From contig PHBC01000008.1 of the NCBI GenBank assembly GCA_002840505.1, positions 7,193-71,192 of the forward strand: a DNA stretch of 64,000 nucleotides, written 5' to 3'. The notes under the pieces were generated by a model. That model was not told the DNA's origin, made no database searches, and worked only from the letters and a program-made list of their open reading frames with translations. Shown in pieces: positions 22,710-50,569 of this stretch (its first letter is position 1; each line of letters begins with the position of its first letter). The position numbers were made by a program, and so were the translations under genes. This stretch comes from Deltaproteobacteria bacterium HGW-Deltaproteobacteria-2. Its GTDB lineage: Bacteria; Desulfobacterota; Syntrophia; Syntrophales; Smithellaceae.

Positions 22710-23774
22710 ATGAAAAGGGTATTCAGTATTATCTTAATGATCTTGCTACTTGCAAGCACATCATTTTCTGCAACAGTTTATAACACCATTCAATTGAGGC
22801 GCGGGACAGCAGCAACATGGACATCGGCTAATCCGGTTTTATCTCAGGGTGAACCGGCCTACGAAACAGATACGGGACGCCTTAAAATCGGCAACGGTAC
22901 GTCTCATTGGGTTAGCCTGGATTATTACCCTACGACATATTCAGAAGAATGGATAACTCAAAATGCAACATTTACCTATATATCAGCCACTCAATTCAGC
23001 ACAACGGGAAACGTAACTTCTTCTTACCCCGTTGGAATAAGAGTAAAGGCCGTTGTTACAGCCGGTACTATTTACGGGACGGTAACGACGGTAGCGGCAA
23101 GCGGAACTCCGACAGTTACGACCGTCACGGTGGCATGGGATTCCGGATCTTTGGACTCAGGACTATCAGCGGTCAGCATAGGCATATTCTCCCCTGTAAA
23201 TTCAGCAGTCCCACCTAAATTCTTTATTGCAACCGGCGTTATTGTCCCTTATGGCGGATCTACCGCTCCTTCCGGTTGGCTTATGTGTTACGGACAAGCA
23301 GTTTCCAGAACGACTTACTCAGATTTATTTGCCATTATTGGAACTACTTTCGGAGCGGGCAACGGCACGACTACTTTTAATGTGCCTGATTTACGCGGAC
23401 GCTCAGTAATAGGTCCCGACAATATGGGCGGAGGCGCGGCAGGAAGAGTAGCCGCGGCAACCGCGGCAGGCTATACGGCAGGAACGGAAACCGTTGATCT
23501 ATCCCACACCCATACTACGGCAGACCATGTTTTAACCAGTGACGAGATACCCGCGCATTCCCATACAACCACTTTGAAGGTTGGTGAGACACAAGCCGAA
23601 GTCGTCGGCGGACAATTAGGAACAACCACTGCAACGGCCACTACTTATACGGTAACATCAAGTATTGTCGGCGGCGGAGAGGGACATGATCACGGCGCAA
23701 CTACGAGCTCATTGTCTGCGACGCAAAGCGTAATGAACCCATATTTATCGGTGAATTACATTATCAGATATTAG
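22710..23774 (+). CDS. tail fibre protein with phage tail-collar domain
   Basis: The N-terminal block IQLRRGTAATWTSANPVLSQGEPAYETDTGRLKIGNG is a tail-fibre / Mtd-N-like motif. The collar motif is GWLMCYGQAVSRTTYSDLFAIIGTTFGAGNGTTTFNVPDLRGR. SD is AAGGAGG. Confidence 0.75.
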   Translation: MKRVFSIILMILLLASTSFSATVYNTIQLRRGTAATWTSANPVLSQGEPAYETDTGRLKIGNGTSHWVSLDYYPTTYSEEWITQNATFTYISATQFSTTGNVTSSYPVGIRVKAVVTAGTIYGTVTTVAASGTPTVTTVTVAWDSGSLDSGLSAVSIGIFSPVNSAVPPKFFIATGVIVPYGGSTAPSGWLMCYGQAVSRTTYSDLFAIIGTTFGAGNGTTTFNVPDLRGRSVIGPDNMGGGAAGRVAAATAAGYTAGTETVDLSHTHTTADHVLTSDEIPAHSHTTTLKVGETQAEVVGGQLGTTTATATTYTVTSSIVGGGEGHDHGATTSSLSATQSVMNPYLSVNYIIRY

Positions 23775-23877: not shown

Positions 23878-24198
23878 ATGGATACTTTCTTTAAGATTAT
23901 CAATGTGGTTATGGCGATTGTTGTCTTGTATATCGGGTATAAGCAAACCCAAAAGTATCGCAATGAGGACAAGAAAGAGAAACTGCAATCTGCTCTTGAT
24001 GAATCCCACCGTAACGAACTTAAGAAATCTATTAAAGGCATTTCGGACACTCTTAAAAAGACCACAGAAGATATATTCTTTATGTTTGATAATCACGGAC
24101 ATGAGATACTTTGCAATAACGAGTCGTGTACGAAACCGAGAACGGGGAAAATTTTCATAGCTCCGCCTCAGCAGAGAAGGGAGAGCGACAGGCTATGA
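23878..24198 (+). CDS. lysis-cassette membrane protein (single N-terminal TM plus charged coiled region; holin, antiholin or spanin-like)
   Basis: N-terminal TM segment FFKIINVVMAIVVLYIGY. The stop overlaps the endolysin start (ATGA). Confidence 0.4.
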   Translation: MDTFFKIINVVMAIVVLYIGYKQTQKYRNEDKKEKLQSALDESHRNELKKSIKGISDTLKKTTEDIFFMFDNHGHEILCNNESCTKPRTGKIFIAPPQQRRESDRL

Positions 24199-24677
24199 AA
24201 ACAATCGACATCAAGGAACTGCTTTTAAATACCTTCGGCCACTTGGACGATAAACAATTAATGGCCTTAACTATTTATGGCGAGGCCAGAGGGGAAAGTG
24301 AAGAAGGTAAAATTGCCGTTGGCTCAGTTATCCTGGAGCGTGTTGATCATCGGGATTGGGACGGCGACACTATTCAGGAAGTATGCTTAATGCCTTATCA
24401 ATTTTCCTGTTATCTTCCGGCCGATCCTAATTATCCCGCACTTAAATTAATCGCCCAGGATTGGGAAACTAAATATCTTCATTCAACGGACCTTCGAGAA
24501 TGCTACCGTATTGCCTGTGATATGTTGGCCGGTCTAATTCCCCGGACAAAGGGAATAGCTGAGAGTCACGCCACACAATATTTAACAACTGCATTGCGAA
24601 AAACAAAGGCTTGCCCGAAGTGGGTAAATACAATGAATCTGGTCGCCTTGGTAGGTTCGCATGAGTTTTACGCTTAA
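24195..24677 (+). CDS. endolysin, SleB-type cell-wall hydrolase (Hydrolase_2 family)
   Basis: The motif LTIYGEARGESEEGKIAVGSVILERV...YQFSC is characteristic of SleB/CwlJ-like cell-wall hydrolases. The ATG at 24195 is preceded by GGGAGAG. Confidence 0.8.
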   Translation: MKTIDIKELLLNTFGHLDDKQLMALTIYGEARGESEEGKIAVGSVILERVDHRDWDGDTIQEVCLMPYQFSCYLPADPNYPALKLIAQDWETKYLHSTDLRECYRIACDMLAGLIPRTKGIAESHATQYLTTALRKTKACPKWVNTMNLVALVGSHEFYA

Positions 24678-25702: not shown

Positions 25703-25738
25703 GCAAAAACGGACGGGAGTTCGACTCCCTGTTTTTGC
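25703..25738 (+). other. degenerate T-arm-like hairpin (possible relic att site or tRNA-like fragment)
   Basis: GCAAAAAC..GGGAGTTCGACTCCC..GTTTTTGC. It shares GTTCGACTCCC (25719-25729) with the genuine T-arm 103 bp downstream (25822-25832). Confidence 0.35.
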
Positions 25739-25807
25739 GGTAGAAATGCGGTAGTAGTGAAATTAGATAGTTATAAAAAGGCGTGATAAAAAACGTAATA
25801 AAATCAA

Positions 25808-25845
25808 GGGTTGCGCTGCGGGTTCGACTCCCGCCGCCTCCACCA
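25808..25845 (+). ncRNA. 3'-terminal fragment of a tmRNA (ssrA) or tRNA-Ala gene (T-arm, acceptor 3' strand, ACCA); probable attR
   Basis: GCGGG-TTCGACT-CCCGC T-arm (25818-25834), then CGCCTCC-A-CCA. The T at position 70 implies a G3:U70 pair, and A73 is present; together these mark alanine identity. No matching 5' half lies upstream, where the sequence is AT-rich. Confidence 0.55.
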
Positions 25846-25879
25846 TTAGGGAATCCAACAAAATCCAAAGAAGTATAAG

Positions 25880-26119: not shown

Positions 26120-27874
26120 ATGACAATGGTTAAGAAAAAACATAATGATGTTATTCTCAAAAAATGCCCGACGGGCATCAAGGGGCTCGATGAAATCACG
26201 AAGGGAGGGCTACCGAAGGGCAGGCCAACACTGATCTGCGGCTCTGCGGGTTGCGGCAAAACACTTTTCTCCATGGAATTTCTCATGCGGGGCGCCATGG
26301 ATTACGGTGAGCCCGGGGTCTTTATGACCTTCGAGGAAACGCCGGAAGATCTTGCGAAGAACTTCATGTCTCTCGGATTCGATCTTCATGACATGGTGAA
26401 ACGCGGTCTCATCGCCACTGATCATGTTTATATCGAGCGCAGTGAGATTGAAGAGACAGGTGAGTACGATCTGGAAGGATTGTTCGTCCGCCTGGGCAGT
26501 GCCATTGATTCCATCGGAGCAAAACGGGTTGTCCTGGATACCATCGAAGCGCTTTTCTCCGGGCTGTCTAATACCGGTATCATCCGCGCAGAACTCAGAA
26601 GGCTTTTTCACTGGTTGAAAGAGCGCGGTGTAACCGCCATCGTTACGGGAGAAAGCGGCGACAAAACGCTGACACGCTACGGGCTTGAAGAATACGTGGC
26701 CGATTGCGTGATCTTACTCGATTTTCGCATTGACGAACAAATTTCCACGCGCCGTCTGCGTATTGTCAAGTACCGCGGATCATCTCATGGCGCCGACGAA
26801 TACCCTTTCCTGATTGACGAAAGCGGCATCTCTATCCTGCCCATCACTTCTCTGGGACTCGATTATCCTGTTTCCCGCCAGCGCATCGCCACGGGCATCC
26901 CCAAGTTGGATGCCATGTTCGAAGGGAAGGGGTTCTATCGGGGCAGCACCATTCTTGTCTCGGGTACAGCGGGCACCGGCAAAACAAGTATGTCTGCCAC
27001 CTTTGCCGACGCCGCCTGCCGGCGTGGTGAGCGCTGCCTGTATTTTGCTTTTGAGGAATCGCCCAGCCAGATTATCCGGAACATGGGCTCCATCGGCATC
27101 GATCTCACACGATGGGTGAAGAAGGGGCTGCTCAAGTTTCATTCCGCTAGGCCTTCGCTTTACGGTCTGGAGATGCATCTTGTCACCTTCCACAAAGTGA
27201 TCGATGAGTTCCAGCCCCAGGTTTTTGTCGTTGACCCGATCAGCAACTTAAGCGCCGCGGGAACACCATCAGAGGTCAAATCAATCTTAACGCGCCTGAT
27301 CGACCATTTGAAGATGAAAAATATCACAACTTACCTTACGGACCTCAACCATTTTGGAAGCAGTCTTGAGCACACCAGCGAAGAGATATCTTCTCTGATC
27401 GATACATGGCTGCTACTGAGAGATATCGAACTCAATGGAGAGCGTAACCGGGGCCTCTATATTTTGAAGTCCCGCGGCATGGCCCACTCCAACCAGATTC
27501 AGGAATTCCTGCTCACGAATCAGGGCATTGACCTGATCGACATCTATACCGGTTCGGGCGAGGTATTAACCGGCAGTGCCCGGGCAGCTCAGGAAGCCGG
27601 GGAAAAGGCCTCTGAACTGGCAGCACGGCGAGAGGCGGAACGCAGGCTCCGCGAGCAGGAGCGCAAGAGAAATGCCCTGGAAACAAAGATTGCCGCGCTG
27701 CGTGCCGAGTTTGATGTGGAAACACAAGAGGTGCAGTTGATGGCGGAAGAAGAGCAAAAAAGACAGGCTATGCTGGCCCAGGATCGCTTGGTTATGGCGC
27801 ATCTGCGCAAGGGGAAAACTTCGGCTCCGCAGACGAAGCATTCGAAAAAGAAGAGAGAAAGGAGCATGCGCTGA
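26120..27874 (+). CDS. kaiC: KaiC-family double-RecA ATPase/autokinase with a C-terminal coiled-coil extension
   Basis: Two Walker A motifs ([16 protein letters not shown]), paired catalytic EE ([16 protein letters not shown]), and [17 protein letters not shown] at the N-terminus. Length is 584 aa. An alternative ATG lies at 26126. Confidence 0.9.
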
Positions 27875-27876
27875 AA

Positions 27877-28200
27877 ATGGCTGCAACAGTAAAAGGAAAT
27901 AAAAAGACCGATGCAACAGAAGAAATCTGGAATCTCAGGTTGTATGTCGCCGGTCAGACCCCGAAATCAATTACGGCCTTTGCTAATTTAAAGAATATCT
28001 GTGATGAGCACCTTGCCGGAAAATACCGAATTGAAGTCATTGATCTTTTAAAGAATCCCCAGCTGGCCAAAGGTGATCAGATTATTGCCATACCGACACT
28101 GGTTAGGAAACTACCCGAGCCGATTAAAAAGATTATCGGCGATCTGGCCAACACGGAACGTGTCCTGGTGGGACTGGACATTCGTTCTGTCTCAGGATGA
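27877..28200 (+). CDS. kaiB: KaiB
   Basis: [63 protein letters not shown] is the thioredoxin-like KaiB signature. The start lies 2 nt after the kaiC stop. Confidence 0.9.
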
Positions 28201-28270
28201 TAAGTCAGCAATCAGAGGTCAGGAATCAGGATTCAGTCTGCCTGAGCCGTAACTTATTGTAGTAACAGCG

Positions 28271-28615
28271 ATGGAGATGAAAAAAGTGAAAACTAACACT
28301 GAGAAATTCGAAAAAGTGGCAGCTAAGCAGGACCGGGCAAAGTATGTTCTTCGGCTGTACGTCACAGGAATGACCCCAAAATCAACCAGGGCCATTACCA
28401 ATGTCCAGACACTCTGTGAACAGTACCTGAAGGGTTGCTATGAACTCGAGGTGATTGACATCTACCAGCAGCCCAAACTGGCCGCGGGAGAACAGATTAT
28501 TGCCACGCCGACGCTTATCAAGAAACTCCCCCTGCCGCTGAGGAAAGTCATCGGCGACATGTCGGATACGGAAAGGTTTCTTGTGGGCATCGATCTGAAA
28601 TCCAAGAAATTATAA
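28271..28615 (+). CDS. kaiB: second KaiB paralogue
   Basis: LRLYVTGMTPKSTRAITNVQTLCEQYLKGCYELEVIDIYQQPKLAAGEQIIATPTLIKKLPLP; carries a longer N-terminus than the first copy. Confidence 0.85.
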   Translation: MEMKKVKTNTEKFEKVAAKQDRAKYVLRLYVTGMTPKSTRAITNVQTLCEQYLKGCYELEVIDIYQQPKLAAGEQIIATPTLIKKLPLPLRKVIGDMSDTERFLVGIDLKSKKL

Positions 28616-28625
28616 GAGCGAATAA

Positions 28626-30248
28626 ATGAACAAAACGGATAAAACACGCCAGCAACTTTTGGACGAATTGCAGGAGCTCAAAGATCGGATGAAGGAATCC
28701 GATGAAACTCTGCGCGCCATCCTGAACGGTGAAGTGGATGGTCTCGTTGTGAAAACGGAGGAAGGCGATCGGGTCTTTACACTATCGGGTGCGGATCATC
28801 CTTACCGGATCATGGTCGAAACCATGAACGAAGGGGCCGTCACAATGGGCGCTGACGGCACGATCCTTTTCTGTAATCAACGTTTTGCAAATATCGTCAA
28901 AGCGTCTCTGAAAAAAATAATGGGATCTCCAATCTATCAATACCTTTCATCAACAGATATTCCATTATTTAAGACATTGATTGAACGGGGCATGAAAGGG
29001 AAAAGTAAGGCGGAAATCAAACTACAAACCGGATGTGAAAAATTCGTGCCTGTCTTACTTTCTATTAACGCTATTCAACACACGGATATTCCCGGTGTAT
29101 TGTGCATGGTAGTTACCGACCTGACGGAACAAAAGCATAATGAAGAAATGCGGGTAGAGGAGCGGGCGCTGCAAAAATCCCATGACAAGCTTGAGCAGCA
29201 GGTAGAAGAGCGAACAGTTAAACTTCGGACGGCTCTTCATGAAATCAAAGAAATGAAAGATAAGCTCGAGGCCGAGAATATCTACTTCCGTCAAGAGCAC
29301 AAAACAAAACATCAATTTGAGAATATTATCGGGCAGAGTGATGGTCTTAAGTATGTTCTCTATCGGGCACAGCAAGTTGCTCCAGGGAACACAACGATCC
29401 TCATCCTCGGGGAGACCGGTACGGGGAAAGAGCTGATCGCTGCCTCCATCCATAACATGAGTCCCCGAAAAGAAAGGCCATTGATCACGGTCAACTGTGC
29501 CGCCCTGCCGGGTAATTTAATTGAGAGCGAATTGTTCGGTCGGGAGAAGGGAGCATTTACCGGAGCAGATGCCCGGAGGATGGGGCGATTCGAAGTTGCT
29601 AATGGTTCTACAATATGTCTTGATGAGATCGGGGAGCTGCCGCTGGAGTTGCAGGGAAAGTTGCTGAGGGTGATTCAGCATGGCGAGTTTGAGCGTCTGG
29701 GTTCTTCCCAAACCATCAAAGTCGATGCGCGGATCATAGCAACGACCAATCGAAACCTTGAAGAAGAAGTTCGCCAGGGCCGGTTTCGGCAGGATCTTTT
29801 CTATCGGCTCAACGTCTTCCCCATCACGGTCCCGCCACTACGGCTACGCAAAGATGACATTCCGCTGATGGTCCAGGCCTTTATGGAACGGTATTCCAGA
29901 AAATTGGGCAAACAGATAACGAATATTCCGAAGGAAACGATTAAAGCACTGAAGGATTATCCTTGGCCCGGTAACGTCCGGGAGCTGGAAAGTATCATTG
30001 AACGAGCTGTGATCTTGTGCCCCGGGCCGGTTTTGCAGCTGGCGGATAAACTGGAGATTTCATCTCCCACACTTTCATCTGCCATGCGAACACTGGAAGA
30101 TACGGAGCGAAGCCAAATTATAAAAATCCTCACGGAAACCAACTGGCGCATCGAGGGAAAAGACGGGGCCGCAGCTATCCTGGGCATCCATCCGAGTACT
30201 TTAAGAGCGAGACTGCATAAGCTGGAAATAGTGCGGCCGGAGACATAA
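28626..30248 (+). CDS. sigma54-dependent transcriptional activator: coiled coil-PAS-AAA+(GAFTGA)-Fis-type HTH, no receiver domain (EBP1)
   Basis: Walker A GETGTGKE, the GAFTGA loop ([10 protein letters not shown]), [24 protein letters not shown], and a C-terminal [26 protein letters not shown]. Starts 10 nt after the kaiB2 stop. Confidence 0.9.
   Translation: MNKTDKTRQQLLDELQELKDRMKESDETLRAILNGEVDGLVVKTEEGDRVFTLSGADHPYRIMVETMNEGAVTMGADGTILFCNQRFANIVKASLKKIMGSPIYQYLSSTDIPLFKTLIERGMKGKSKAEIKLQTGCEKFVPVLLSINAIQHTDIPGVLCMVVTDLTEQKHNEEMRVEERALQKSHDKLEQQVEERTVKLRTALHEIKEMKDKLEAENIYFRQEHKTKHQFENIIGQSDGLKYVLYRAQQVAPGNTTILILGETGTGKELIAASIHNMSPRKERPLITVNCAALPGNLIESELFGREKGAFTGADARRMGRFEVANGSTICLDEIGELPLELQGKLLRVIQHGEFERLGSSQTIKVDARIIATTNRNLEEEVRQGRFRQDLFYRLNVFPITVPPLRLRKDDIPLMVQAFMERYSRKLGKQITNIPKETIKALKDYPWPGNVRELESIIERAVILCPGPVLQLADKLEISSPTLSSAMRTLEDTERSQIIKILTETNWRIEGKDGAAAILGIHPSTLRARLHKLEIVRPET
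29265..30239 (+). repeat. about 975-bp segment (AAA+ and HTH coding part of EBP1) repeated colinearly at +4950 bp in EBP2
   Basis: Colinear with 34215-35189 without indels. For example, a 47-nt identical run occurs at 29508-29554 and 34458-34504. Confidence 0.85.
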
Positions 30249-30281
30249 GAATCAGATTGGCATATTTAAGAAAATTCTGGT

Positions 30282-33035
30282 ATGTCTATCACCATGAAAA
30301 AACAAGCAAAAACAGTAAAAAAAGATCATAAAAGGGATAAATCTCCCCTTACCCGGATAAACCGTACAGATAACTTAACGAAGGGAACCTCCGTTACTCT
30401 TTTCAGTATTCCCTTGAGAGGTAACAAAGCGCAGAAAAAAATTTCCGGCTTACCAAAAGATACACTGGCGCGGCCCCAAAAAGATTTTCTTTTTCCCATA
30501 GCCGGTATCGGTGCGTCCGCAGGCGGACTGGAAGCCATCGAACAGTTCCTGCGGCATGTTCCCGCAAACAGCGGCGTCGCTTTTATCATCGTCCAGCATC
30601 TGGATCCGACCCACAAGGGTATGATGCACGAATTGCTTAAGCGCGCCACCTCGATGGAGATTTTTCAGGTCAAAGATGGAATGCGGGTCAAGCCAAACTG
30701 CGTTTATGTTATTCCCCCCAACAAGGACATGTCCATTCTGCACGGAGTACTGCATCTGTTCCAGCCGACGGCGCCACGCGGTCTGCGCCTCCCGATTGAT
30801 TTCTTTTTGCGCTCCCTGGCCGATGACTGTCAGGAACACAGCATAGGCGTCATCCTCTCCGGCATGGGTTCGGACGGTACGATGGGATTACGCGCTATCA
30901 AAGAAAAGATGGGCGTGACGCTGGTGCAGGAACCTGCCTCGGCCAAGTTCGACAGCATGCCCCGCAGCGCCATTACGGCAGGTCTTGCCGACATCATCGC
31001 TCCAGCGGCGGATTTGCCCGGAAAGATTATCGACTATCTGAACCACACTATCTTCATTGCCAAAAATGGAATGCCCATGGAGGAGAAGGACCAAAGCGCT
31101 CTGGAGAAAGTCTTCATTCTCCTTCGCTCCAAGACCGGCCATGATTTTTCCATGTACAAAAAGAACACCGTTTACCGCCGGATCGAACGGCGCATGAGCA
31201 TTCACAAGATCAACCGGATCGCGTCTTATGTCCGCTACCTGCAGGAGAATTCGCAGGAAGTTGAGCTTCTCTTTAAGGAGCTTCTGATCGGCGTGACCAG
31301 CTTTTTTCGTGACGATGCGGCATGGGAACATCTGCGTCTGAAGGTTATCCCGGCGCTGCTGAAAACCCGCGAAGCCCGACAAACTCTGCGGGCCTGGTCG
31401 GCGGGCTGTTCGACCGGAGAAGAAGCGTATTCGCTGGCGATGGCCTTCAAAGAAGCCGTCGAACAGATTAAACCGGCCCAAAATTTTAAACTGCATATCT
31501 TTGCTACCGACCTCGATCGCGAAACGATAGACAAAGCAAGGCAGGGATTCTATCCGGCTAATATCGTCGCGGACATAACCCCCGGGCGACTGAAGCGTTT
31601 TTTTAACAAGGTAGAAGGCGGCTACCAGATCGTGAAGGAGATTCGGGAAATGGTGACTTTCGCCACTCAGAATATCGTCATGGACCCGCCCTTTACCAAG
31701 CTGGATATCCTTGTTTGCCGCAACCTTTTAATTTATTTGACGCCGGAGCTGCAAAAAAAGCTCCTGCAGCTTTTTCATTATAGCCTGAACCCTGGCGGCA
31801 TCCTGTTTCTGGGAAGTTCGGAGACCATCAGCACTTTCACCCATCTATTTGCGCCTCTTAACATCAAGACACGGATTTTCCGGAGACTCGAATCAGTCCT
31901 GCCGGCAGAAACACAGATATTCCCTGTTTCATTTTCTCCCGCCAAGTCGGGAGTTTCCAAGGAGTTAACGATGTTGAAACCTGCAACGAATCTGCAATCA
32001 TTAGCCGACCAATTACTTCTGCAGCGCTTTTCCCCGCCCGCCGTTCTGGTGAACGAGAAAGGGGACATCCTTTATATCAGCGGAAGGACAGGCAAATATC
32101 TGGAGCCGGCTGCCGGCAAGGCCAACTGGAATATTTTTGCCATGGCCCGGGAAGGGCTCCGTTTTGATCTCGGCAGCGCTTTCCAGAAGGCCCTCAGACA
32201 AAAAGGAACGGTCACCGCCAAGGATCTTACGGTGGATGAAAACGGCGGCACGCATACAGTCGATATCACCGTCAAGTTTATTCAGGAGCCGGAGGCGCTG
32301 CGGGGAATGGTCATGATCGTTTTTACCGACGTGGAAACATCTCCGGCAAAGAAATCGAAGGTTGGCGCAAAGACCGCGCCTGCCGGTCATGCCCGGGTTC
32401 TGGAACTGGAGCAGGAACTGAGACATCTGCGCGAAGAGCTTCAGACAACCCGCGAAGAAATGCAATCTTCGCAGGAAGAACTCAAATCAGCCAATGAAGA
32501 ACTTCAATCCACCAACGAAGAGTTGCAGTCCACCAATGAAGAGCTGACCACCTCCCGGGAAGAAATGCAATCCATGAACGAAGAATTGCAGACGGTCAAC
32601 GCTGAGCAGCAATCCAAGATGGAAGAGCTCTTTAAAATAAACGACGATATGAGGAATCTCCTCAACAGCACGGAAATCGTCACTGTGTTTTTAGACAACG
32701 ACCTCCATGTCCGGCGCTTTACGCCCGGGGCGGACAAAATCTTCAAACTGATTCCGGGAGACGTGGGACGGCCGCTCTCCGATATCGTCAGCGACCTGCT
32801 CTATCCCAAAATGACCGAGGAAGCACGGGAAGTGCTGCGCACGCTGGTCTTTTCGGAAAAGCAGGTTGCCACGGCCGACGGGCGCTGGTTTTCAGTGCGC
32901 ATTATGCCCTACCGTACCATGGATGACGTCATCGGCGGCGTGGTGATCACCTTTTCGAATATTACCGCGACCAAGTCGCTGGAAGCCGAACTGAGGGAAG
33001 AGATTGGCAAGTTAAAAAATGAAGATAGCAGATAG
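30282..33035 (+). CDS. CheB-type methylesterase / CheR-type methyltransferase / PAS fusion protein with a heptad coiled coil; no kinase or receiver output
   Basis: CheB-like block VAFIIVQHLDPTHKG...GVILSGMGSDG. CheR-like block TSFFRD...LRAWSAGCSTGEEAYSLAM...IFATDLD...FCRNLLIYL. Coiled coil EELKSANEELQSTNEELQSTNEEL, followed by a PAS domain. Confidence 0.85.
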   Translation: MSITMKKQAKTVKKDHKRDKSPLTRINRTDNLTKGTSVTLFSIPLRGNKAQKKISGLPKDTLARPQKDFLFPIAGIGASAGGLEAIEQFLRHVPANSGVAFIIVQHLDPTHKGMMHELLKRATSMEIFQVKDGMRVKPNCVYVIPPNKDMSILHGVLHLFQPTAPRGLRLPIDFFLRSLADDCQEHSIGVILSGMGSDGTMGLRAIKEKMGVTLVQEPASAKFDSMPRSAITAGLADIIAPAADLPGKIIDYLNHTIFIAKNGMPMEEKDQSALEKVFILLRSKTGHDFSMYKKNTVYRRIERRMSIHKINRIASYVRYLQENSQEVELLFKELLIGVTSFFRDDAAWEHLRLKVIPALLKTREARQTLRAWSAGCSTGEEAYSLAMAFKEAVEQIKPAQNFKLHIFATDLDRETIDKARQGFYPANIVADITPGRLKRFFNKVEGGYQIVKEIREMVTFATQNIVMDPPFTKLDILVCRNLLIYLTPELQKKLLQLFHYSLNPGGILFLGSSETISTFTHLFAPLNIKTRIFRRLESVLPAETQIFPVSFSPAKSGVSKELTMLKPATNLQSLADQLLLQRFSPPAVLVNEKGDILYISGRTGKYLEPAAGKANWNIFAMAREGLRFDLGSAFQKALRQKGTVTAKDLTVDENGGTHTVDITVKFIQEPEALRGMVMIVFTDVETSPAKKSKVGAKTAPAGHARVLELEQELRHLREELQTTREEMQSSQEELKSANEELQSTNEELQSTNEELTTSREEMQSMNEELQTVNAEQQSKMEELFKINDDMRNLLNSTEIVTVFLDNDLHVRRFTPGADKIFKLIPGDVGRPLSDIVSDLLYPKMTEEAREVLRTLVFSEKQVATADGRWFSVRIMPYRTMDDVIGGVVITFSNITATKSLEAELREEIGKLKNEDSR

Positions 33036-33215
33036 AATGCATAATACAGGAAATAGAATAAAGAAAGCTGTCCCCCGCTGGCGGGGGATTAAGGGGGTGG
33101 ACTTTTTAACGTGGCTGTAATGTTTATCGGTTACAGCTTGAAAGTCCTTTATCCACCTCCGTCCCGATGACACATCGGGACACCTCCGCCGGCGGAGGAT
33201 AAAAAAGGAGCAGTC

Positions 33216-35210
33216 ATGGGCGCCACCAAAGATAAAAGCAAGTCAACAGTAGACGGACTTCGCCGTCAGGCCGAAGAGCGGTTGCGCGCGAAGAAGGCGC
33301 AACTGCCGCTGCCTCAGAGCAAAGAAAATGTCCAGAGACTGGTCCACGAGCTTGAGGTTCACCAGATCGAGTTGGAAATGCAGAATGCGGAGCTCAGGCA
33401 GGCCCGCGAGGAACTCGAATTATCGCGCAATAAATATGTTGAACTCTATGACTTTGCGCCTATCGGTTATTTCACCTTTGATGCCCAGGGACGGATAAAG
33501 GAGGTCAATCTTACCGGCGCCAAACTCATGGGTGTCGAGAGGCAGGGACTGGTAAATAAATCCTTTGCCGGTTTTATTGCCGATGCAGACTCCAAAGAAA
33601 ACTTTTTGAAACATTGCCAAACGGTATTTCAAAAAGAGGGGGAACAGACCTGTGAAATCCGGCTGAAGAAAAAAGACGGCACAAATTTCTGGGCGCAGCT
33701 TCAAAGTATAGCGCAGGAAAATACCGAAAAGAAAGCCGGTGATATCCGGACGATGATCATGGATATTACCGGCCACAAGAAGGCGGCCGAGAAGATAGAG
33801 CATCTTTCTTCCTTTCCCGAACTCAATCCCAATCCGGTCATTGAGACAGATATGAAAGGAGAAATAATTTACTGCAACGCGGCAGCCGCTAAAGTATCGA
33901 AGCAGTTAAACATCCCGGAAGATGGCCGCCTGCTTCTCCCGCGGAATCTGCCCGACATCATAAAAAAGCTGGGACAGGAAAAAGAGGGGCGATATGAACT
34001 TGTGGAGGTGGAAATAAACGGCAGAGTGTTTATCGAAAGCATCATTGCGCCTGCTCGGCTGAAAGTCGTGCGTATCTATGCGTGGGATATCACCAAGCGC
34101 AAAAAAGCGGAACAGGCTCTTAAAGAAGCCCATGACGGGCTTGAAGAGAAGGTGGAAGCACGGACCGTCGATCTTCAATCAGCGCTGTCTAAAATTAAAA
34201 CAATGAAGGAACAGCTCGAGGCCGAGAATATCTACTTCCGTCAAGAAAATAAAATGAGACATAAATTCGAGGATATTATCGGGCAAAGTGATGGTCTTAA
34301 GTATGTTCTCTATCGGGCCGAGCAAGTTGCTCCGACGAACACAACCATCCTCATTCTCGGGGAAACCGGCACGGGAAAAGAACTGATCGCTGCCGCCGTC
34401 CATAATATGAGCCCCCGCAAGGAAAGGCCTTTATTCACGGTTAATTGCGCCGCTCTGCCGGGTAATTTAATTGAGAGCGAATTGTTCGGTCGGGAGAAGG
34501 GAGCCTTTACAGGGGCGGATTCCCGGCGGGTTGGTAGATTTGAGATTGCCAATGGTTCCACTATTTGCCTGGACGAGATCGGAGAACTGCCTCTGGACTT
34601 GCAGTCAAAGCTTCTCCGGGTGATTCAGCATAGCGAGTTTGAGCGCCTCGGCTCGTCCCAGACCGTTAAAGTAGATGTGCGGATCATCGCGACGACCAAT
34701 CGAAATCTTGAGGAAGAGGTACGCAATGGCCGGTTTCGGCAGGACCTTTACTATCGGCTCAATGTCTTCCCCATCACTGTTCCGCCACTCAGGCTGCGCA
34801 AAGATGACATTCCACTGATGGTTCAGGCCTTTGTAGAACGGTATTCCAGAAAAATGGGCAAAGAGATTAAGACGATCAAGCGGGAGACAATAGAGGAATT
34901 GCAGAATTACCCGTGGCCCGGTAACGTTCGGGAACTGGAAAGCGTCATTGAACGGGCCGTAATATTGTGTCCCGGGCCGGTTCTGCAGCTGGCGGATAAA
35001 CTGGAGATTTCATCTCCAACACTTTCATCCGCTATAAGAACTCTGGAAGATATGGAGCGAGGACAAATTCTAAAAATTCTTACGGAAACAAAATGGCGCA
35101 TCGAGGGAAAGGATGGGGCCGCAGCTATACTGGGCATCCATCCGAGTACGTTAAGAGCGAGACTGCATAAGCTGGATATCGTGCGGCCGAAAACAAAAAA
35201 TTCAAAATAA
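33216..35210 (+). CDS. sigma54-dependent transcriptional activator: coiled coil-PAS-PAS-AAA+(GAFTGA)-HTH (EBP2), paralogue of EBP1
   Basis: Carries the same AAA+ and HTH motifs as EBP1. The N-terminal [24 protein letters not shown] zipper plus PAS ([12 protein letters not shown]) differs from EBP1. Confidence 0.9.
34215..35189 (+). repeat. second copy of the EBP AAA+/HTH repeat
   Basis: See 29265-30239; constant offset of 4950 bp. Confidence 0.85.
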
Positions 35211-35485: not shown

Positions 35486-35767
35486 ATGGATGAAATATTT
35501 ATAAAAAAAGTGCGGACGGCCGCGTTGGCTGGATGGTGGACTGTTTTAATCGCCTACTGTCTCCTGCTGATTCAATGGGGTGCTTATTTGTTAATTATAC
35601 CCAGGCAGCCGGCAGGAATGCTTTGCTTTTGGGGTGAAGGTGTTACCTGGCAGGAAATCCGCAGTATCTGGTTGTGGGCGATGGTAGCCTATAAGCTTGG
35701 CGTCGTCATGATGATATTTGTCGTCATCTGGCTGACATTTTGGGCAAGACAACTGGCAAAAAAATAG
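35486..35767 (+). CDS. small integral membrane protein (3 TM), unknown function
   Basis: SD AGGAG; hydrophobic helices (WWTVLIAYCLLLIQWGAYLLII, IWLWAMVAYKLGVVMMIFVVIWLTFW). First gene after cassette 1. Confidence 0.55.
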   Translation: MDEIFIKKVRTAALAGWWTVLIAYCLLLIQWGAYLLIIPRQPAGMLCFWGEGVTWQEIRSIWLWAMVAYKLGVVMMIFVVIWLTFWARQLAKK

Positions 35768-35848
35768 AACGGGAAGGTTGAAGAGAAAGGGTGGCCGGAG
35801 CAATTAATTTAAAAAGCATTTCAATACCAACACAAAGAGGGCAATCCA

Positions 35849-37165
35849 ATGAAGGGTAAAGAACTCCGGGTATTAATCGTTGAAGACTCGGAAGATGATG
35901 CGCTGCTTTTAATCCGTGAACTTAAAAAGGGCGGATACAATCCGGTGTATGACCGGGTGGCCAACGCTGTCGCAATGAAAAAAGCCATTCAAGAGAAGAA
36001 ATGGGACATTATTCTTTGCGATTATATAATGCCCGGATTTAATGCTCCTTCAGCCATTCATGTATTGAAGGAAGCAAATGTTGACATTCCTCTCATCGTT
36101 GTATCCGGAACGATCGGTGAAGAAACGGCCATAGAGTGTATGCGTTTCGGCGCCAAAGATTATATCATGAAATCCAATCTGGTCCGTCTTTGCCCGGCCA
36201 TATCCAGAGCACTGGAAGAGGCAGAAATTAAAAATAAGCATAAGCAGGCCCAAGAGTTACTGAACGCTTCGGAAGTCCGGTACAGGCGGCTTTTTGAGTC
36301 AGCAAAAGATGGGATTCTTATCCTTGATTGCGAAACGGGAAAAATTGTTGACGTTAATCCATTTCTGATTGAGCTGCTGGGTTATTCGCGTGAGCAATTC
36401 ATAGAGAAGGCTGTGTGGGAACTGGGGCCATTTAAGGATATTATTCCCAATCGCAACAAATTTCTGGAATTGCAGAGCCAGGAGTATATCCGTTATGATA
36501 ATTTGCCTTTGGAAACCATTGATGGACGGCTTGCCAATGTTGAATTCGTCAGTAATGTCTATGCAGAGGGCAATACCAGGGTAATTCAGTGCAATATTCG
36601 CGATATCACCGAACGTAAAGAAGCGTTGAAAGCGCTGCGGGAAAGCGAAAAACGATACAGGGAACTGAGCATAATCGATGACCTCACGCAGCTTTATAAT
36701 TCCAGGCATTTTTATGCTCAGCTCAAAATAGAAACAGAGCGGTCGAACCGCTATAAACATCCTCTGACCATTCTACTTATGGATATCGACAAATTCAAGG
36801 AGTTCAACGACTCATACGGCCATATTGAAGGGGACAGTGTGTTGTCTCAAATAGGCAAACTGTTGAAAAAATGCCTGCGCGAGAGCGATTCTGCCTATCG
36901 TTATGGCGGCGAGGAATTTACAATCATATTGCCGATGACCACAATCGAAGATGGAACGATAATGGCGGAAAGAATACAAACGGAATTAATGGAAAAGGCC
37001 TTTTCCCCGATATCGGGTCAAAATGTTTATATAACAGCGAGTATCGGTTTTGCTCAGTACATGCCGAATGAAGAGATGAAAGCGTTCGTTCAGCGCGTAG
37101 ACCAACTCATGTACCAGGCTAAGAAGAAAAGGAACCACAGTATTTATTCTGAATTACAGAGTTAA
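35849..37165 (+). CDS. response regulator receiver-PAS-GGDEF diguanylate cyclase
   Basis: REC domain (VLIVEDSEDD...ILCDYIMPG), a PAS domain, and a GGDEF domain with the intact RYGGEEF active-site motif. Confidence 0.85.
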   Translation: MKGKELRVLIVEDSEDDALLLIRELKKGGYNPVYDRVANAVAMKKAIQEKKWDIILCDYIMPGFNAPSAIHVLKEANVDIPLIVVSGTIGEETAIECMRFGAKDYIMKSNLVRLCPAISRALEEAEIKNKHKQAQELLNASEVRYRRLFESAKDGILILDCETGKIVDVNPFLIELLGYSREQFIEKAVWELGPFKDIIPNRNKFLELQSQEYIRYDNLPLETIDGRLANVEFVSNVYAEGNTRVIQCNIRDITERKEALKALRESEKRYRELSIIDDLTQLYNSRHFYAQLKIETERSNRYKHPLTILLMDIDKFKEFNDSYGHIEGDSVLSQIGKLLKKCLRESDSAYRYGGEEFTIILPMTTIEDGTIMAERIQTELMEKAFSPISGQNVYITASIGFAQYMPNEEMKAFVQRVDQLMYQAKKKRNHSIYSELQS

Positions 37166-37362: not shown

Positions 37363-37953
37363 ATGATGAAAACATACTGCAATGCACTATTCATGATCGT
37401 TTTATTGTTGATGTTTACCGGATGCGCCGCTCTTTTGCCGCACAGCACGATAACGACTGAATCACCCTGGCAGGATTTCAATGGTGCCAAATTGACCTAT
37501 GATAAAATTAATCCCGGAGTAACCACGGTGAGTGATCTGAAAAGATTAGGGTTCGATCCTTATTTAACACCAAATATCAAGATAATGAATGTCACGGAGG
37601 TTATCAATCTATTCTTGCCCAATCCCTCTATTAAAAAGGAAGATTTGGATATTGGCATTCAAAAATGCATCGAGAGTAAGGACCGGTGTACGGCCTACCA
37701 GATTTCGCCCAGCAAATTATATGTAAATCGAATAGGTAATTTCTGGTTGGACCTGTTTTCATTCAAGCGCCATACCGTAAATAGCGGATGGGAATTCAAG
37801 GGATTAATCACAATTGTTGATAATGTTGTCACTTACAGAGACCCGCCGGGAGGACGACCCTTAATTAACATGGATCAAATTGACGTTAAGCCTTTAGGGC
37901 CTGCTCAAGAAGCCGGAAGTGCGATCATTGCTACGGTTCCGCTTATCTGGTAG
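37363..37953 (+). CDS. lipoprotein, unknown function
   Basis: Signal peptide with lipobox LMFTGC; SD GGGAGGTGG. Confidence 0.6.
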   Translation: MMKTYCNALFMIVLLLMFTGCAALLPHSTITTESPWQDFNGAKLTYDKINPGVTTVSDLKRLGFDPYLTPNIKIMNVTEVINLFLPNPSIKKEDLDIGIQKCIESKDRCTAYQISPSKLYVNRIGNFWLDLFSFKRHTVNSGWEFKGLITIVDNVVTYRDPPGGRPLINMDQIDVKPLGPAQEAGSAIIATVPLIW

Positions 37954-38190: not shown

Positions 38191-38373
38191 CATACATCTA
38201 TAAAGATACTTTTTAATCTTAACCTTCAAGCGAGTTCCTGTTTGTTTTTTAGGAGAGGATTATAAATTACCGAAGGCTACTAAAAGTTTTTTAGGAGCAA
38301 AATAATGAAGGAGATAAGTAACAGAAGATTAATAATCAGCAATTGCAATTTAATAACTTTGAAAGGAGATAAT

Positions 38374-38877
38374 ATGAAAAGATTTAAGACCCAGCAGGCT
38401 TTTTTTACGTTAATTATGTTAGCAGTGAGTATTTTTTTATTTACAGGATGTGGAAGTAGTGATGAGGCCGCGCTGATAACAGCCCCATTCGATTCGGTCC
38501 TCCCCGGAACATGTGGTGAAACGGGACCCAAGGTGGATTCGGCAGATCCCGCTACTGGTGCCGTGGATGTGGCGATCGATACATGGATTACGGCTACCTT
38601 CAGTGAGGCGATGGATCCGACGACGATCGAAGTGACCACTCCCGGAAGCCCAGAGGTGGAGACGTTTACCCTCTATGATAATGACTACCCCGGAATCCCC
38701 ATAGAAGGTACCGTCGAAATGGATGTCACAAACACAATAGCGACCTTTAAGCCAACAGCAGTCCTCGCGAAAGGTACCACGTTTACGGTGACTATTACCA
38801 AGTATGCCAAGAGATTATCAGATAACACCCCACTTGGCTGTAACTATCGATGGGAATTTCAGACGACGGATATTTAA
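38374..38877 (+). CDS. lipoprotein with SbsA/Big_5-type Ig-like domain
   Basis: The ATG at 38374 after GAAAGGAGA gives MKRFKTQQAFFTLIMLAVSIFLFTGC (lipobox). The Ig-like block is PKVDSADPATGAVDVAIDTWITATFSEAMDPTTI. The track start at 38305 is an in-frame upstream ATG. Confidence 0.7.
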   Translation: MKRFKTQQAFFTLIMLAVSIFLFTGCGSSDEAALITAPFDSVLPGTCGETGPKVDSADPATGAVDVAIDTWITATFSEAMDPTTIEVTTPGSPEVETFTLYDNDYPGIPIEGTVEMDVTNTIATFKPTAVLAKGTTFTVTITKYAKRLSDNTPLGCNYRWEFQTTDI

Positions 38878-39069
38878 GGGATGAGGGCGTGAAAAAAGGA
38901 AAAGTTGTGGAGTATCGGGCGAAATTAAGAATATCGTTTAAATATAAACCTGAATAGATTTGTCCCGCCTTTGGCGGGATTGTTCGACTTACAAATTTTA
39001 ATGCGTTTCACTTTTAAAATTTGAGTCTCATAAATAAAAGAATATTAACCAGACAAACAGGAGGAATTT

Positions 39070-39753
39070 ATGAAAAAAATATTTATGTTAGTTGTCGTCA
39101 TGATGTTGATCACTTTCACCTCAGCCGTGCAGGCAGAAGTCAGGGCCGGTGGGTTGCCCGCTCTAGTTGTGGATGATAGGATTAGCGATGGTAACGCCCC
39201 AGCTACGGCACCAGCCAGAGCCGGTGCTTTACCCGCTATTACTGTGGATGAAAGGATCCCTAATTGTACCTGTAAAACAGATCCCTCCTACTGTGCTAAA
39301 CCAGTAGTCGCATCTGCACCAGTTCCGGAACCAGTTCCAGAACCAGCTCCGGTTGTGGTTCCTCCTCCGGCACCAGCTCCCAAGCCAGTTATTATTGAAA
39401 AAGGCAGGCAGACACTTAATGTCGAATTCGATTTTGATAAATCAACCATTAAGAAAGGTTACTATCAAGACATCGATAATCTGGCTGGAGTGATGAAACA
39501 ATATCCCGATCTTAACGTTGCAATCGAAGGACACACCGACAGCATTGGTTCTGATGCTTACAATGAAAAACTTTCCCAGGAAAGAGCTGACGCTGTAAAG
39601 AATTACATGGTTGAGAAAAACGGTATTGATGCAAATCGTATCAAGGCGATTGGTTTTGGTGAGAAACAACCTGTTGCTTCAAACGATACCAGTGAAGGTC
39701 GTGCTCAGAATCGTCGCGTAGAAGCGGCTGTCGATTATAGAATCGAGAAGTAA
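39070..39753 (+). CDS. OmpA-family (OmpA_C peptidoglycan-binding) protein with repeats and a Pro-rich linker
   Basis: Signal peptide; duplicated segment EVRAGGLPALVVDDRI / ARAGALPAITVDERI; a PxP-rich linker; OmpA_C motifs FDFDKSTI...IEGHTDSIGSDAYNEKLSQERADAV...NRRVE. Confidence 0.8.
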   Translation: MKKIFMLVVVMMLITFTSAVQAEVRAGGLPALVVDDRISDGNAPATAPARAGALPAITVDERIPNCTCKTDPSYCAKPVVASAPVPEPVPEPAPVVVPPPAPAPKPVIIEKGRQTLNVEFDFDKSTIKKGYYQDIDNLAGVMKQYPDLNVAIEGHTDSIGSDAYNEKLSQERADAVKNYMVEKNGIDANRIKAIGFGEKQPVASNDTSEGRAQNRRVEAAVDYRIEK

Positions 39754-40122: not shown

Positions 40123-40304
40123 TTTCACCACATTATACTTTTAATTTTACCCCAAGCGCGAGTTCTTCTTATTTTTTGGGGAAGCAGATTATAACTTAAC
40201 GAAAGATACAAAATTATTTTCAGAGGGAGGAATAATGAAGGAGATAGGTATTCGAAAGCTAACAGAAAGCAATTGTAAAATTAATGACTTTGAAAGGGGG
40301 TTAT

Positions 40305-41945: not shown

Positions 41946-42126
41946 GGCATGAGGTATTCGATATGAAAGCAGGCAAAAGGGAAGACAGGTTGTTTATCAT
42001 AATTCATCCGCTCTCCTTTTGCCTTGCTGCAACGCTTCGTTCTTTGAGCACTAAGATGTCTCCTGCGGCTTATTTGAAGAGCCGCAGGGGCAGCAGCTAA
42101 ACGCGACAATATAAAGGAGGACTACA

Positions 42127-43212: not shown

Positions 43213-43240
43213 ATATTCTTTTTCTAATAACTTAACAATA

Positions 43241-43275
43241 CTGAAGAACCCCAGGCTTACTGCGGGGTTCTTCAG
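43241..43275 (+). terminator. terminator-like hairpin, paralogous to the one at 39785
   Basis: CTGAAGAACCCC-11 nt loop-GGGGTTCTTCAG, with the loop core GGCTTACTGC shared with the 39785 hairpin. No clear U-tract. Confidence 0.45.
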
Positions 43276-43305
43276 TGAGAAATAAAAAGAGAGTATTACG
43301 CGTGA

Positions 43306-43383
43306 TGCGAAGCAGCTCCTGAAAAGCTTTATTCAAGGGCCGCGAAGTTAAACATGAGAGTTCTTTTTGAAATATTCGTGTAA
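43306..43383 (+). pseudogene. orphan 3' fragment (last 25 codons plus stop) of an OmpA/Pal-like gene paralogous to 44113..44682
   Basis: Reads CEAAPEKLYSRAAKLNMRVLFEIFV*, compared with YEAAPKELYSKAAKSNMRVLFEIVVR* at the end of 44113..44682. No upstream coding part exists. Confidence 0.6.
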
Positions 43384-43524
43384 TAGGAGTAGCGGGTTAA
43401 TGTTCCAAAAAGATGTTTTATAAGAAAGGAGTCGCGCTGGTGGACGGCATTGTGCTGCTGGTTGCGAGAAGCAGAAAAGACTTAAAGATAGACAAAACTT
43501 CTAATGTGTAAAGGAGACAAAAAA

Positions 43525-44046: not shown

Positions 44047-44112
44047 AGAAACATGATTTCTTAAGGAAATATTCTGGATGTGCAAACAAAAAATTAAACA
44101 GGAGGTTTAAAA

Positions 44113-49058: not shown

Positions 49059-49130
49059 ATACTGTCTATATGATGTCGGTCATAATATGAGTGTCCTTAC
49101 TTAAGAAGCGCATGGAATTGTCACAAATCA

Positions 49131-50005: not shown

Positions 50006-50017
50006 AGGAGATCAAAA

Positions 50018-50552: not shown

Positions 50553-50569
50553 GAAAGGAGTGCAGAAAT

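Follow-up and report, generated by a model that had tools for sequence, protein, structure and literature searches.

The DNA examined here is a 64,000-nt stretch (the window) of contig PHBC01000008.1 from Deltaproteobacteria bacterium HGW-Deltaproteobacteria-2, a member of the Smithellaceae. Pfam models were run against about 50 of its larger open reading frames (ORFs), with some small ORFs and a few ORFs of at least 100 aa left out, and domain statements for the window refer to this set. Six consecutive genes were identified on the forward strand between 26120 and 35210, namely kaiC, two kaiB genes (kaiB1 and kaiB2), a gene for a sigma-54 enhancer-binding protein (EBP) designated EBP1, a CheB-CheR-PAS fusion (CheBR-PAS) and a second EBP gene (EBP2), with intergenic gaps of 2, 70, 10, 33 and 180 nt, respectively (Table 1). 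We consider the proposal that kaiC, kaiB1, kaiB2 and EBP1 constitute one signalling cassette whose output is a sigma-54 activator.

This gene order on one strand, the 10-nt gap ahead of the first EBP, the presence in that EBP of GAFTGA and HTH elements without a receiver domain, and the lack of a kinase output in CheBR-PAS had been described in an earlier note on this DNA, and all of these were reproduced by Pfam and by motif inspection. The same note described EBP2 as a PAS-PAS-EBP; one PAS domain was detected by Pfam, and the second (approximately residues 200-300) was recognized by sequence inspection alone. Its report that the window lacks kaiA, a SasA/CikA-type kinase and an RpaA-type regulator was borne out among the scanned ORFs, none of which contained a KaiA, histidine-kinase or RpaA-type domain or resembled SasA (a kinase with a KaiB-like N-domain), CikA (a pseudo-receiver kinase) or an OmpR-type RpaA.

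KaiC passed the NCBIfam model NF006799 (746 bits against a cut-off of 408) and missed the cut-off of the cyanobacterial-type model TIGR02655 (347 against 546). The best PDB match was KaiC of Rhodobacter sphaeroides (8DBA, E 5e-195), as compared to E ~1e-97 for cyanobacterial KaiC, and this alignment spanned residues 14-560 of 584, including the heptad-rich C-terminal coiled coil. Both Walker A motifs (GSAGCGKT starting at residue 41 and GTAGTGKT at residue 282) and both catalytic Glu-Glu pairs (residues 72-73 and 312-313, within FEE at 71 and 311) were intact, and a candidate phosphosite, the Ser-Ser pair at residues 424-425, aligned with the SS pair of 8DBA. KaiB1 and KaiB2 scored 96.4 and 90.6 bits, respectively, against PF07689 (cut-off 27) and fell just below the NCBIfam equivalog NF006798 (105.8 and 104.7 against 110). 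The best PDB match of KaiB1 was R. sphaeroides KaiB (8FWJ_M, E 1.5e-30) and matches of KaiB2 were 1R5P and 8FWJ; the C-terminal halves of both proteins aligned well with KaiB structures, and KaiB2 is full-length and 54% identical to KaiB1. The closest matches of KaiC and KaiB1, the coiled-coil tail, the SS pair and the NCBIfam results thus indicate, at the level of sequence, an R. sphaeroides-type KaiBC system that does not depend on KaiA and whose KaiC bears an SS phosphosite pair and a coiled coil at its C-terminus. For R. sphaeroides, KaiBC of this type is described as an hourglass-like timer (PMC10076222). Relatives of this KaiC with 85-93% identity were found in Smithella, Syntrophaceae and Syntrophales metagenome-assembled genomes (MAGs). 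Variants with a single KaiB (i.e. kaiC, one kaiB, EBP) were observed in loci L104, L108 and L166, so that the two-KaiB state looks like a later duplication. In some relatives a small gene lies between kaiB1 and kaiB2, such as a 23S_rRNA_IVP-family gene in L082 (9239-9604) and a 126-aa ORF in L002.

EBP1 consists of an N-terminal module (residues 1 to ~180, comprising a helix, a beta-hairpin and a PAS domain), a coiled-coil linker, a sigma-54 AAA+ domain and HTH_8, with the motifs GETGTGKE at residue 262, GAFTGA at 309 and DEIGE at 333 and HTH_8 at 489-532. In EBP1 and EBP2 alike, both Walker motifs (A and B), GAFTGA and the arginine-finger region were present. Receiver and kinase (HisKA/HATPase_c) domains were absent from EBP1, and no NCBIfam equivalog model reached its cut-off, the best being FhlA with 385 bits against 830. 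Residues 1-195 were modelled by AlphaFold2 with a mean predicted local distance difference test score (pLDDT) of 82.8, the model containing a helix (8-33), a beta-hairpin (39-52), a PAS core (59-165) and an exit helix (167-194). The exact EBP1 protein was present on eight public metagenome contigs.

Distribution of the N-terminal module

The genes that follow kaiB were surveyed in 80 genome loci picked by KaiC similarity alone (60-91% identical), which came from Syntrophales, Geobacterales, Bacteroidota, Planctomycetota, Acidobacteriota, Nitrospirota, Gammaproteobacteria, Methanoperedens, Bathyarchaeota and others. The order kaiC, kaiB, (kaiB), X was observed in nearly all of these loci, and a first-position KaiB of the KaiB1 type was kept across phyla. 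In 62 of the 80 the N-terminus of X matched residues 1 to ~180 of EBP1, with 26-50% identity and E values of 1e-20 to 1e-57. The match takes in the pre-PAS helix and the hairpin and goes far beyond generic PAS similarity; as an internal control, the PAS domains of EBP2 gave no significant match to the EBP1 module. Among 63 X proteins examined with Pfam the output domains varied (38 HATPase_c, 15 receiver, 6 Sigma54_activat, 2 GGDEF-EAL and 1 HD_5), the six Sigma54_activat proteins being those of the window and of five Syntrophaceae/Smithella loci. About 14 short stand-alone module proteins (232-250 aa) were found in Bacteroidota.

A reverse survey was seeded on residues 1-300 of EBP1, without Kai information, and yielded 80 further metagenome loci. 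Over all 126 module genes, the outputs were 44 EBPs, 44 histidine kinases (HKs), 15 stand-alone modules and 9 others, and 14 genes ended at contig edges. Module genes from both surveys were pooled and those with a module at least 55% identical to that of EBP1 were classed as close (n = 58). A kaiB2 gene lay within 400 nt upstream in 54 of the 55 close module genes with enough upstream sequence, the lone exception (L090) having another module gene in between, and the gap from kaiB2 to the module gene was short in most relatives (usually ~10-20 nt). Upstream kaiC was present in 27/28 and fusion to a sigma-54 AAA+ domain in 33/34 of the close genes. By comparison, Kai genes were found within 4 kb upstream in none of eight paralogous EBPs that share the AAA+ domain (at least 80% identical) but have other sensors and lack the module, indicating that Kai linkage follows the N-terminal module and not the activator cassette.

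Several loci have the arrangements expected of intermediates in a swap of output domains. The order in L090 is kaiC-kaiB1-kaiB2-[module-HisKA-HATPase]-[module-EBP]-CheBR, and in L100 and L105 modules 68-71% identical to that of EBP1 are fused to HKs. More distant relatives were sought by comparing full-length EBP1 with 1.84 billion representative proteins. Among the best 150 matches, five clusters carried the N-terminal module, and the two most divergent were looked up. P0108/L165 (module 38% identical) contains kaiB and EBP followed by a variant upstream activating sequence (UAS) and a sigma-54 promoter, and P0148/L166 (KaiC 59% and module 31-32% identical) contains kaiC, one kaiB and EBP followed by a sigma-54 promoter; the kaiB-EBP arrangement therefore extends beyond one genus. 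A protein search with the module alone returned mostly short fragments, of which two were checked and proved to be frame-shifted pieces of EBP genes in long-read assemblies, and this search was not used as a census of architectures. The four-gene cassette also has a cultured example, on plasmid p3 of Pararhizobium qamdonense, for which the NCBI annotation pipeline PGAP lists kaiC, kaiB, a 'KaiB family protein' and a 563-aa 'response regulator'.

The adjacency of kaiBC and a PAS-EBP pointed out in the earlier note is therefore no one-off, being kept in >50 independent contigs and in two divergent lineages. Judged by its sequence, the N-terminal module of EBP1 is the same as that borne by HKs in kaiC-kaiB operons of other phyla, a signature expected of a Kai reader with a swapped output domain. 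In Smithella/Syntrophaceae, and in no fewer than two lineages further off, the output domain is a sigma-54 AAA+/HTH unit in place of a kinase.

Sigma-54 promoters, predicted targets and flanking DNA

The six cassette promoters invoked previously are real. Six -24/-12 elements were identified in the window, all on the forward strand (35403, 37316, 38175, 40107, 49043 and 58217), of which five are exact TGGCA-N6-TTGC sequences (0.65 expected) and the sixth, at 35403, is TGGCC-N6-TTGC. The palindrome CCTCA-N6-TGAGG occurs six times (0.04 expected), and each of the six promoters is located 130-133 bp downstream of a copy. In an alignment of the six regions two sites stand in tandem, CCCTCA-N6-TGAGG first and CC(A)CC-AAATA-N-TGAGGCC second; an AT-rich box (TTAATCTAACCA..TGTTATTAA) resembling a site for integration host factor (IHF) comes next, and then TTGGCAGGCTATTTGC. 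A total of 60 distinct UAS-promoter pairs were found in 39 loci plus the window, with a spacing of 130-134 bp in 58/60, and in relatives the first pair usually starts ~220 bp past the EBP stop codon. Between the linker and the C-terminus EBP1 and EBP2 share 81% identity, and their HTH regions are almost the same, so both proteins would be expected to bind the predicted UAS; their N-terminal regions exhibited no significant similarity.

A large paralogous EBP family (L133-L162) has AAA+ domains 84-92% identical to that of EBP1, the comparison being of the AAA+ domain alone, together with other PAS-type sensors. Most of these paralogues with enough downstream sequence precede the same UAS and sigma-54 promoter, which suggests a single regulon in these bacteria that takes input from many sensors. 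Autoregulation through this UAS was rejected as a general feature, as a UAS and promoter were located upstream of kaiC in only 1/30 loci. In that locus (L125) they lie at 7116-7264, directly upstream of kaiC (7537), and would give positive feedback.

The genes behind P1-P6 are listed in Table 1. The REC-PAS-GGDEF protein behind P1 bears the sole receiver domain among the scanned ORFs, which yielded no histidine kinase, and it ties the Kai-EBP cassette to cyclic di-GMP (c-di-GMP). In L086 the P1 gene pair (the 93-aa protein and REC-PAS-GGDEF, 90% identical) directly follows EBP1, without CheBR or EBP2 in between. Secreted Big_5 proteins lie directly behind both P3 and P4, one with an ice-binding-like domain (PF11999). 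The P4 unit may extend to the genes for fatty-acid cis/trans isomerase (CTI) and malic enzyme, ending at 48875. Further downstream of the P6 targets are Usp (63083-63532) and a rubrerythrin-like gene. Gene debris at 49500-50220, between CsbD behind P5 and the flavodoxin-like gene, includes a piece resembling acyl-CoA dehydrogenase (49568-49870) and two from rubrerythrin C-termini (~49845-49991 and ~50018-50218). A 24-nt element, GAAGCGCATGGARTTGTCACARAT, is repeated at 49105-49128 and 58282-58305, ~60 nt downstream of P5 and P6 (0 expected by chance); it was absent from all fetched relatives and may represent a leader element or else a very short ORF (..KRMELSQ..).

In relatives, 71 proteins encoded by the first or second gene behind UAS-promoter pairs were scanned with Pfam. 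The commonest families were BON (8), ABM (8), ice-binding-like (4), CsbD (4), DUF4398 (4) and DUF5670 (3), and Big_5, OmpA, LTXXQ, YtxH, DUF3309 and DUF3096 were also present. By family content, the target set matches in profile a regulon for general stress and envelope protection, which fits the published stress phenotypes of Pseudomonas KaiC-like proteins. The recurrence of ice-binding-like genes behind these promoters suggests that cold, freezing or surface stress is involved.

The first part of the window (1-25550) is a prophage-like block, with Big_2 among its structural genes. An ORF of 4951 aa (7659-22514) combines Eco57I-type methylase and SNF2/helicase domains, Mtd_N and Collar domains occur in a tail-fibre gene (22710-23774), and a cell-wall hydrolase is encoded at 24126-24677. 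Mtd_N is a hint of a diversity-generating retroelement target; a reverse transcriptase was not seen. A 3'-end fragment of transfer-messenger RNA (tmRNA; ...GCGGGTTCGACTCCCGCCGCCTCCACCA) is present at 25780-25845, or 25780-25853 at its widest, with an Rfam tmRNA match (E 2.6e-6) below the gathering score; at the gathering threshold Rfam gave no match in the window. A second hairpin, resembling a T-arm, lies nearby at 25715-25729. The fragment is probably the remnant of a prophage attachment site, which would place the phage boundary just upstream of kaiC. Membership of the Kai cluster in this prophage was rejected, as the tmRNA fragment precedes kaiC and relatives carry unrelated genes upstream of kaiC.

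Table 1. Features of the kai-EBP locus, the predicted sigma-54 promoters and the genes behind them (window coordinates)
Feature	Coordinates	Strand	Description
kaiC	26120-27874	+	584 aa; two PF06745 domains, E 9e-115 (Pfam)
kaiB1	27877-28200	+	107 aa; Pfam KaiB, E 8e-28
kaiB2	28271-28615	+	114 aa; Pfam KaiB, E 5e-26; paralogue adjoining the reader gene
EBP1	28626-30248	+	540 aa; PAS, Sigma54_activat, AAA_lid_14, HTH_8 (Pfam)
CheB-CheR-PAS fusion	30282-33035	+	917 aa; layout CheB-CheR-(PAS)-coiled coil-PAS_10; CheB_methylest, CheR_N, CheR, coiled coil, PAS_10 (Pfam)
GC-rich palindromic hairpin	33071-33088	.	within the 180-nt gap before EBP2; possible transcript boundary, ambiguous, as a clear T-run on the + strand is absent
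EBP2	33216-35210	+	664 aa; PAS, Sigma54_activat, HTH_8 (Pfam)
P1	35271-35417	+	predicted UAS CCTCAAAATATTGAGG with second TGAGG site, IHF-like AT-rich box and -24/-12 element TGGCCTACTATTTGC
P2	37183-37330	+	predicted UAS and sigma-54 promoter TGGCAAGCCATTTGC
P3	38042-38189	+	predicted UAS and sigma-54 promoter TGGCAGGCTATTTGC
P4	39974-40121	+	predicted UAS and sigma-54 promoter TGGCAGACTATTTGC
P5	48913-49057	+	predicted UAS and sigma-54 promoter TGGCAAGCTGGTTGC
P6	58084-58231	+	predicted UAS and sigma-54 promoter TGGCAGGCTACTTGC
P1 targets	35486-37165	+	93-aa protein; REC-PAS-GGDEF diguanylate cyclase (35849-37165) (Pfam)
P2 target	37363-37953	+	196-aa putative lipoprotein; signal peptide with Cys by sequence inspection
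P3 targets	38305-39753	+	Big_5 protein (38305-38877), OmpA-family protein (Pfam)
P4 targets	40284-44682	+	Big_5/ice-binding-like protein (40284-41945), OmpA beta-barrel, 180-aa protein, OmpA protein (Pfam)
P5 targets	49131-54540	+	CsbD, gene debris, FMN_red/flavodoxin, DUF326, large catalase, DJ-1/PfpI (Pfam); predicted unit
P6 targets	58238-60813	+	small membrane proteins (DUF3096, DUF3309), YtxH, collagen-like protein, Ysc84 (Pfam); predicted unit

Proposed relay of Kai state to a sigma-54 activator

The reading that we favour, with a probability of roughly 0.65, is that kaiC-kaiB1-kaiB2-EBP1 forms one conserved signalling cassette in which the Kai state is relayed via the N-terminal module to a sigma-54 output. 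We infer that this state gates EBP1 from the synteny described above and from published binding of PAS domains to KaiB and KaiC. The PAS domains at the N-terminus of KidA bind fold-switched KaiB and change the clock period, and the authors of that study remarked that outside cyanobacteria PAS genes frequently share an operon with kaiBC (PMC9478674). In Pseudomonas, co-precipitation was reported between KaiC and the N-terminal PAS domain of the neighbouring HK (bioRxiv 10.1101/2022.01.26.477890), and a kaiC-kaiB-PAS/HK operon has been described in Rhodopseudomonas palustris and R. sphaeroides (PMC4794148). In the proposed mechanism, the module would bind the KaiB-KaiC complex, via fold-switched KaiB or KaiC directly, and this contact, transmitted along the coiled-coil linker, would allow or prevent AAA+ ring assembly. 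Once active, EBP1 would bind the tandem site CCCTCA-N6-TGAGG / CC(A)CC-N6-TGAGG ~132 bp upstream of the six sigma-54 promoters and turn on a local regulon for stress and envelope functions, comprising the diguanylate cyclase and the OmpA-family, Big_5/ice-binding, CsbD, catalase, DJ-1 and YtxH proteins, as well as Usp and the fatty-acid isomerase if the transcription units reach that far. EBP2, with its near-identical DNA-binding domain, unrelated PAS and pairing with CheBR-PAS, would feed a Kai-independent signal to the same promoters, possibly by forming mixed rings with EBP1 at P1-P6. The physiological input could be elapsed time (a timer) or the ATP/ADP ratio (energy sensing).

Several observations weigh against this relay. 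The gene for sigma-54 itself, rpoN, is not in the 64-kb window. Foldseek matched the model of the N-terminal module to generic PAS, LOV and ARNT folds alone in the PDB (12-22% identity), without a Kai-specific relative. KidA, a precedent for a PAS contact with KaiB, acts on the clock and does not read it (PMC9478674). Nearly every relative is a MAG or metagenome contig. Adjacency and the shared HTH are the grounds for the tentative assignment of the UAS to EBP1 and EBP2, and other paralogous EBPs of the same genomes may use the same UAS. An exact UAS-promoter pair was present in 19/31 relatives with enough downstream sequence; the rest may bear variants.

A variant of the mechanism has the module contact KaiC itself, on either the CI ring or the C-terminal coiled coil, with the KaiBs tuning the KaiC cycle instead of serving as adaptors. 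The Pseudomonas system lacks KaiB and yet its KaiC binds the PAS of the adjacent HK, although this comparison is indirect; furthermore, certain loci carry just one KaiB, and in L052 no KaiB was matched ahead of the reader gene. Given that the reader almost always stands right after kaiB, and that KidA provides a precedent for contact between PAS and fold-switched KaiB, we consider this variant rather unlikely.

A further alternative reverses the direction of signalling, such that the PAS domain of EBP1 senses a ligand or redox state, binds fold-switched KaiB in the manner of KidA and tunes KaiC; P1-P6 would then follow the PAS ligand, with Kai downstream or alongside. KidA contacts fold-switched KaiB through its PAS domains and alters the clock period (PMC9478674), PAS domains are typical ligand sensors, and the EBP1 model has a normal PAS fold. 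The module is, however, joined to classic output domains (HK, EBP, GGDEF-EAL and HD) across the 126-gene set, as fits a relay from Kai to effectors. Modulation in place of relay thus appears improbable, the two not being mutually exclusive.

The earlier note proposed more broadly that EBP1, CheBR-PAS and EBP2 are all Kai outputs. The single strand and short gaps favour this proposal, as does the position of CheBR after EBP1 in L002, L003, L088 and L090; in L003, L088 and L090 no EBP2 is reached before the end of the contig or locus. Bacteroidales (L050, L072) and Pelovirga (L036) likewise have CheBR-type fusions close to KaiC; in Pelovirga the fusion is a divergently transcribed GAF-CheB-CheR-PAS-HK, so the association of such fusions with KaiC is loose and recurrent. 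However, CheBR-PAS was found directly upstream of an EBP2-type gene in 6/6 loci (L002, L005, L149, L150, L154 and L156), and this pair adjoins Kai-EBP1 in the window, L002 and L005, lying upstream of kaiC in L005. The L156 pair is 84-93% identical to that of the window, and the 3 kb upstream of it contain no Kai gene. In addition, the EBP2 sensor is unlike the Kai module, and a 180-nt gap with a hairpin precedes EBP2. Since the two genes form their own pair at all six loci, occupy these positions in L156 and L005 and carry a sensor that differs from the Kai module, CheBR-PAS and EBP2 are better read as a separable sensory module that gives the same promoters a second input, with no demonstrable role as a Kai output, and the broader proposal has a small chance of being right. 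The direct sigma-54 output put forward in that note is supported for EBP1, by synteny and module homology, and not supported for CheBR-PAS and EBP2.

CheBR-PAS itself matched CheB_methylest (E 3e-57) and CheR (E 2.5e-56) in Pfam and did not reach the cut-offs of the NCBIfam CheB and CheR models. Its catalytic motifs look intact on inspection (GASAGG, VQH and GMGSDG in CheB; AGCSTGEE in CheR), HisKA, HATPase_c and Response_reg domains were absent, and no methyl-accepting chemotaxis protein (MCP), CheA, CheW or other che gene was found among the scanned ORFs. A literature search on CheB-CheR fusions returned noise alone. The coiled coil (32380-32560, residues ~700-760) contains a heptad repeat, EELQSTNEELQSTNEELTTSREEMQSMNEELQ, rich in Glu-Glu and Gln pairs; it resembles methyl-accepting segments and, speculatively, may be a built-in substrate for the protein's own CheR and CheB domains.

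The view that the Kai genes and the EBP are merely adjacent, EBP1 answering to its own PAS signal alone, can hardly be right given the 54/55 versus 0/8 linkage, the short kaiB2-reader gaps, the recurrence of the module after kaiB across bacterial and archaeal phyla with any output domain and the two divergent lineages that keep the order.

A more specific version of the relay is advanced tentatively, as somewhat more likely wrong than right. It holds that, in syntrophs that are strictly anaerobic and non-phototrophic and live in wetlands, peat and sediments, KaiC-KaiB1-KaiB2 would act as a KaiA-independent timer, either an hourglass or one set by energy charge, and directly gate a sigma-54 activator without a phosphorelay, switching on an RpoS-like general stress, envelope and c-di-GMP regulon (catalase, DJ-1, CsbD, BON, OmpA, ice-binding proteins and fatty-acid isomerase). 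If true, this would provide anticipatory or starvation-timed protection, e.g. against daily oxygen or temperature swings, and would be the first Kai system in which the reader itself is a transcription factor and the regulon is legible from the DNA. The occurrence of clock-type proteins in dark-living anaerobes argues for an energy or stress timer and not a light clock.

For KaiBC outside cyanobacteria, published cases of what is controlled stop at a PAS histidine kinase next to kaiBC. No paper linking Kai with sigma-54, enhancer-binding proteins, Syntrophus or Smithella was found in the library searched, in line with the earlier note, whose author had not seen such an output described. Here the putative reader is a transcription factor with a predicted palindromic site and six target promoters fronting recognisable stress genes within 30 kb, so that sequence alone would suffice to reconstitute Kai input, reader, DNA site and regulon, whether in vitro or inside a heterologous host. 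As stress-gene promoters sharing the predicted EBP1 site adjoin the cassette, the output of a non-cyanobacterial Kai system is now directly testable. The definition of a portable Kai-associated helix-hairpin-PAS module, borne on kinases, sigma-54 activators and c-di-GMP enzymes or standing alone, also offers a handle for Kai outputs in any genome.

Comparison with known systems

Among receiver-less EBPs, those of the NifA, FhlA and NorR type share with EBP1 a sensory N-domain, linker, GAFTGA-bearing AAA+ domain and HTH_8; unlike these small-molecule sensors, EBP1 is read as carrying a module for a protein partner (i.e. Kai). Paralogous EBP pairs that share promoters, with the same DNA-binding domain and encoded near each other as are EBP1 and EBP2, are reported for RedR1/RedR2 (PMC10084136) and VnfA/AnfA (PMC9542535).

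KidA of Synechococcus elongatus, a multi-PAS GGDEF-EAL protein (PMC9478674), resembles EBP1 in its use of N-terminal PAS domains as the Kai contact, a putative one in EBP1, and the REC-PAS-GGDEF protein behind P1 recalls it through the link to c-di-GMP. Unlike EBP1, KidA is encoded outside the kai operon and tunes the oscillator. The Pseudomonas KaiC-like protein and its HK (bioRxiv 10.1101/2022.01.26.477890) provide a second parallel, in which KaiC adjoins a PAS-led signalling protein, the PAS alone suffices for KaiC binding and a stress-resistance phenotype matches the stress-type targets found here. That system differs from the window in having no KaiB and an output through a kinase and a response regulator.

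The cyanobacterial KaiABC-SasA/CikA-RpaA system has in common with this locus a KaiC-KaiB core whose state is passed to transcription. In contrast to cyanobacteria, the scanned ORFs of the window include no KaiA, SasA, CikA or RpaA, the promoters are of the sigma-54 and not the sigma-70 family, and no phosphorelay step would be needed between the reader and RNA polymerase. The closest likeness is to the operon of R. palustris and R. sphaeroides, which has the same order of kaiC, kaiB and PAS reader and no kaiA; the R. sphaeroides KaiC, with its coiled coil and SS sites, is the most similar to that of the window, and its KaiB is the closest to KaiB1. The kinases of these two species are likened to EBP1 by gene order and PAS. 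The window departs from this operon in the sigma-54 AAA+/HTH output of its reader, the two KaiB paralogues and the cis-linked target promoters. As judged from gene order and domain content, the locus is thus a variant of the kaiC-kaiB-PAS/HK operon in which the kinase has been replaced by a sigma-54 activator.

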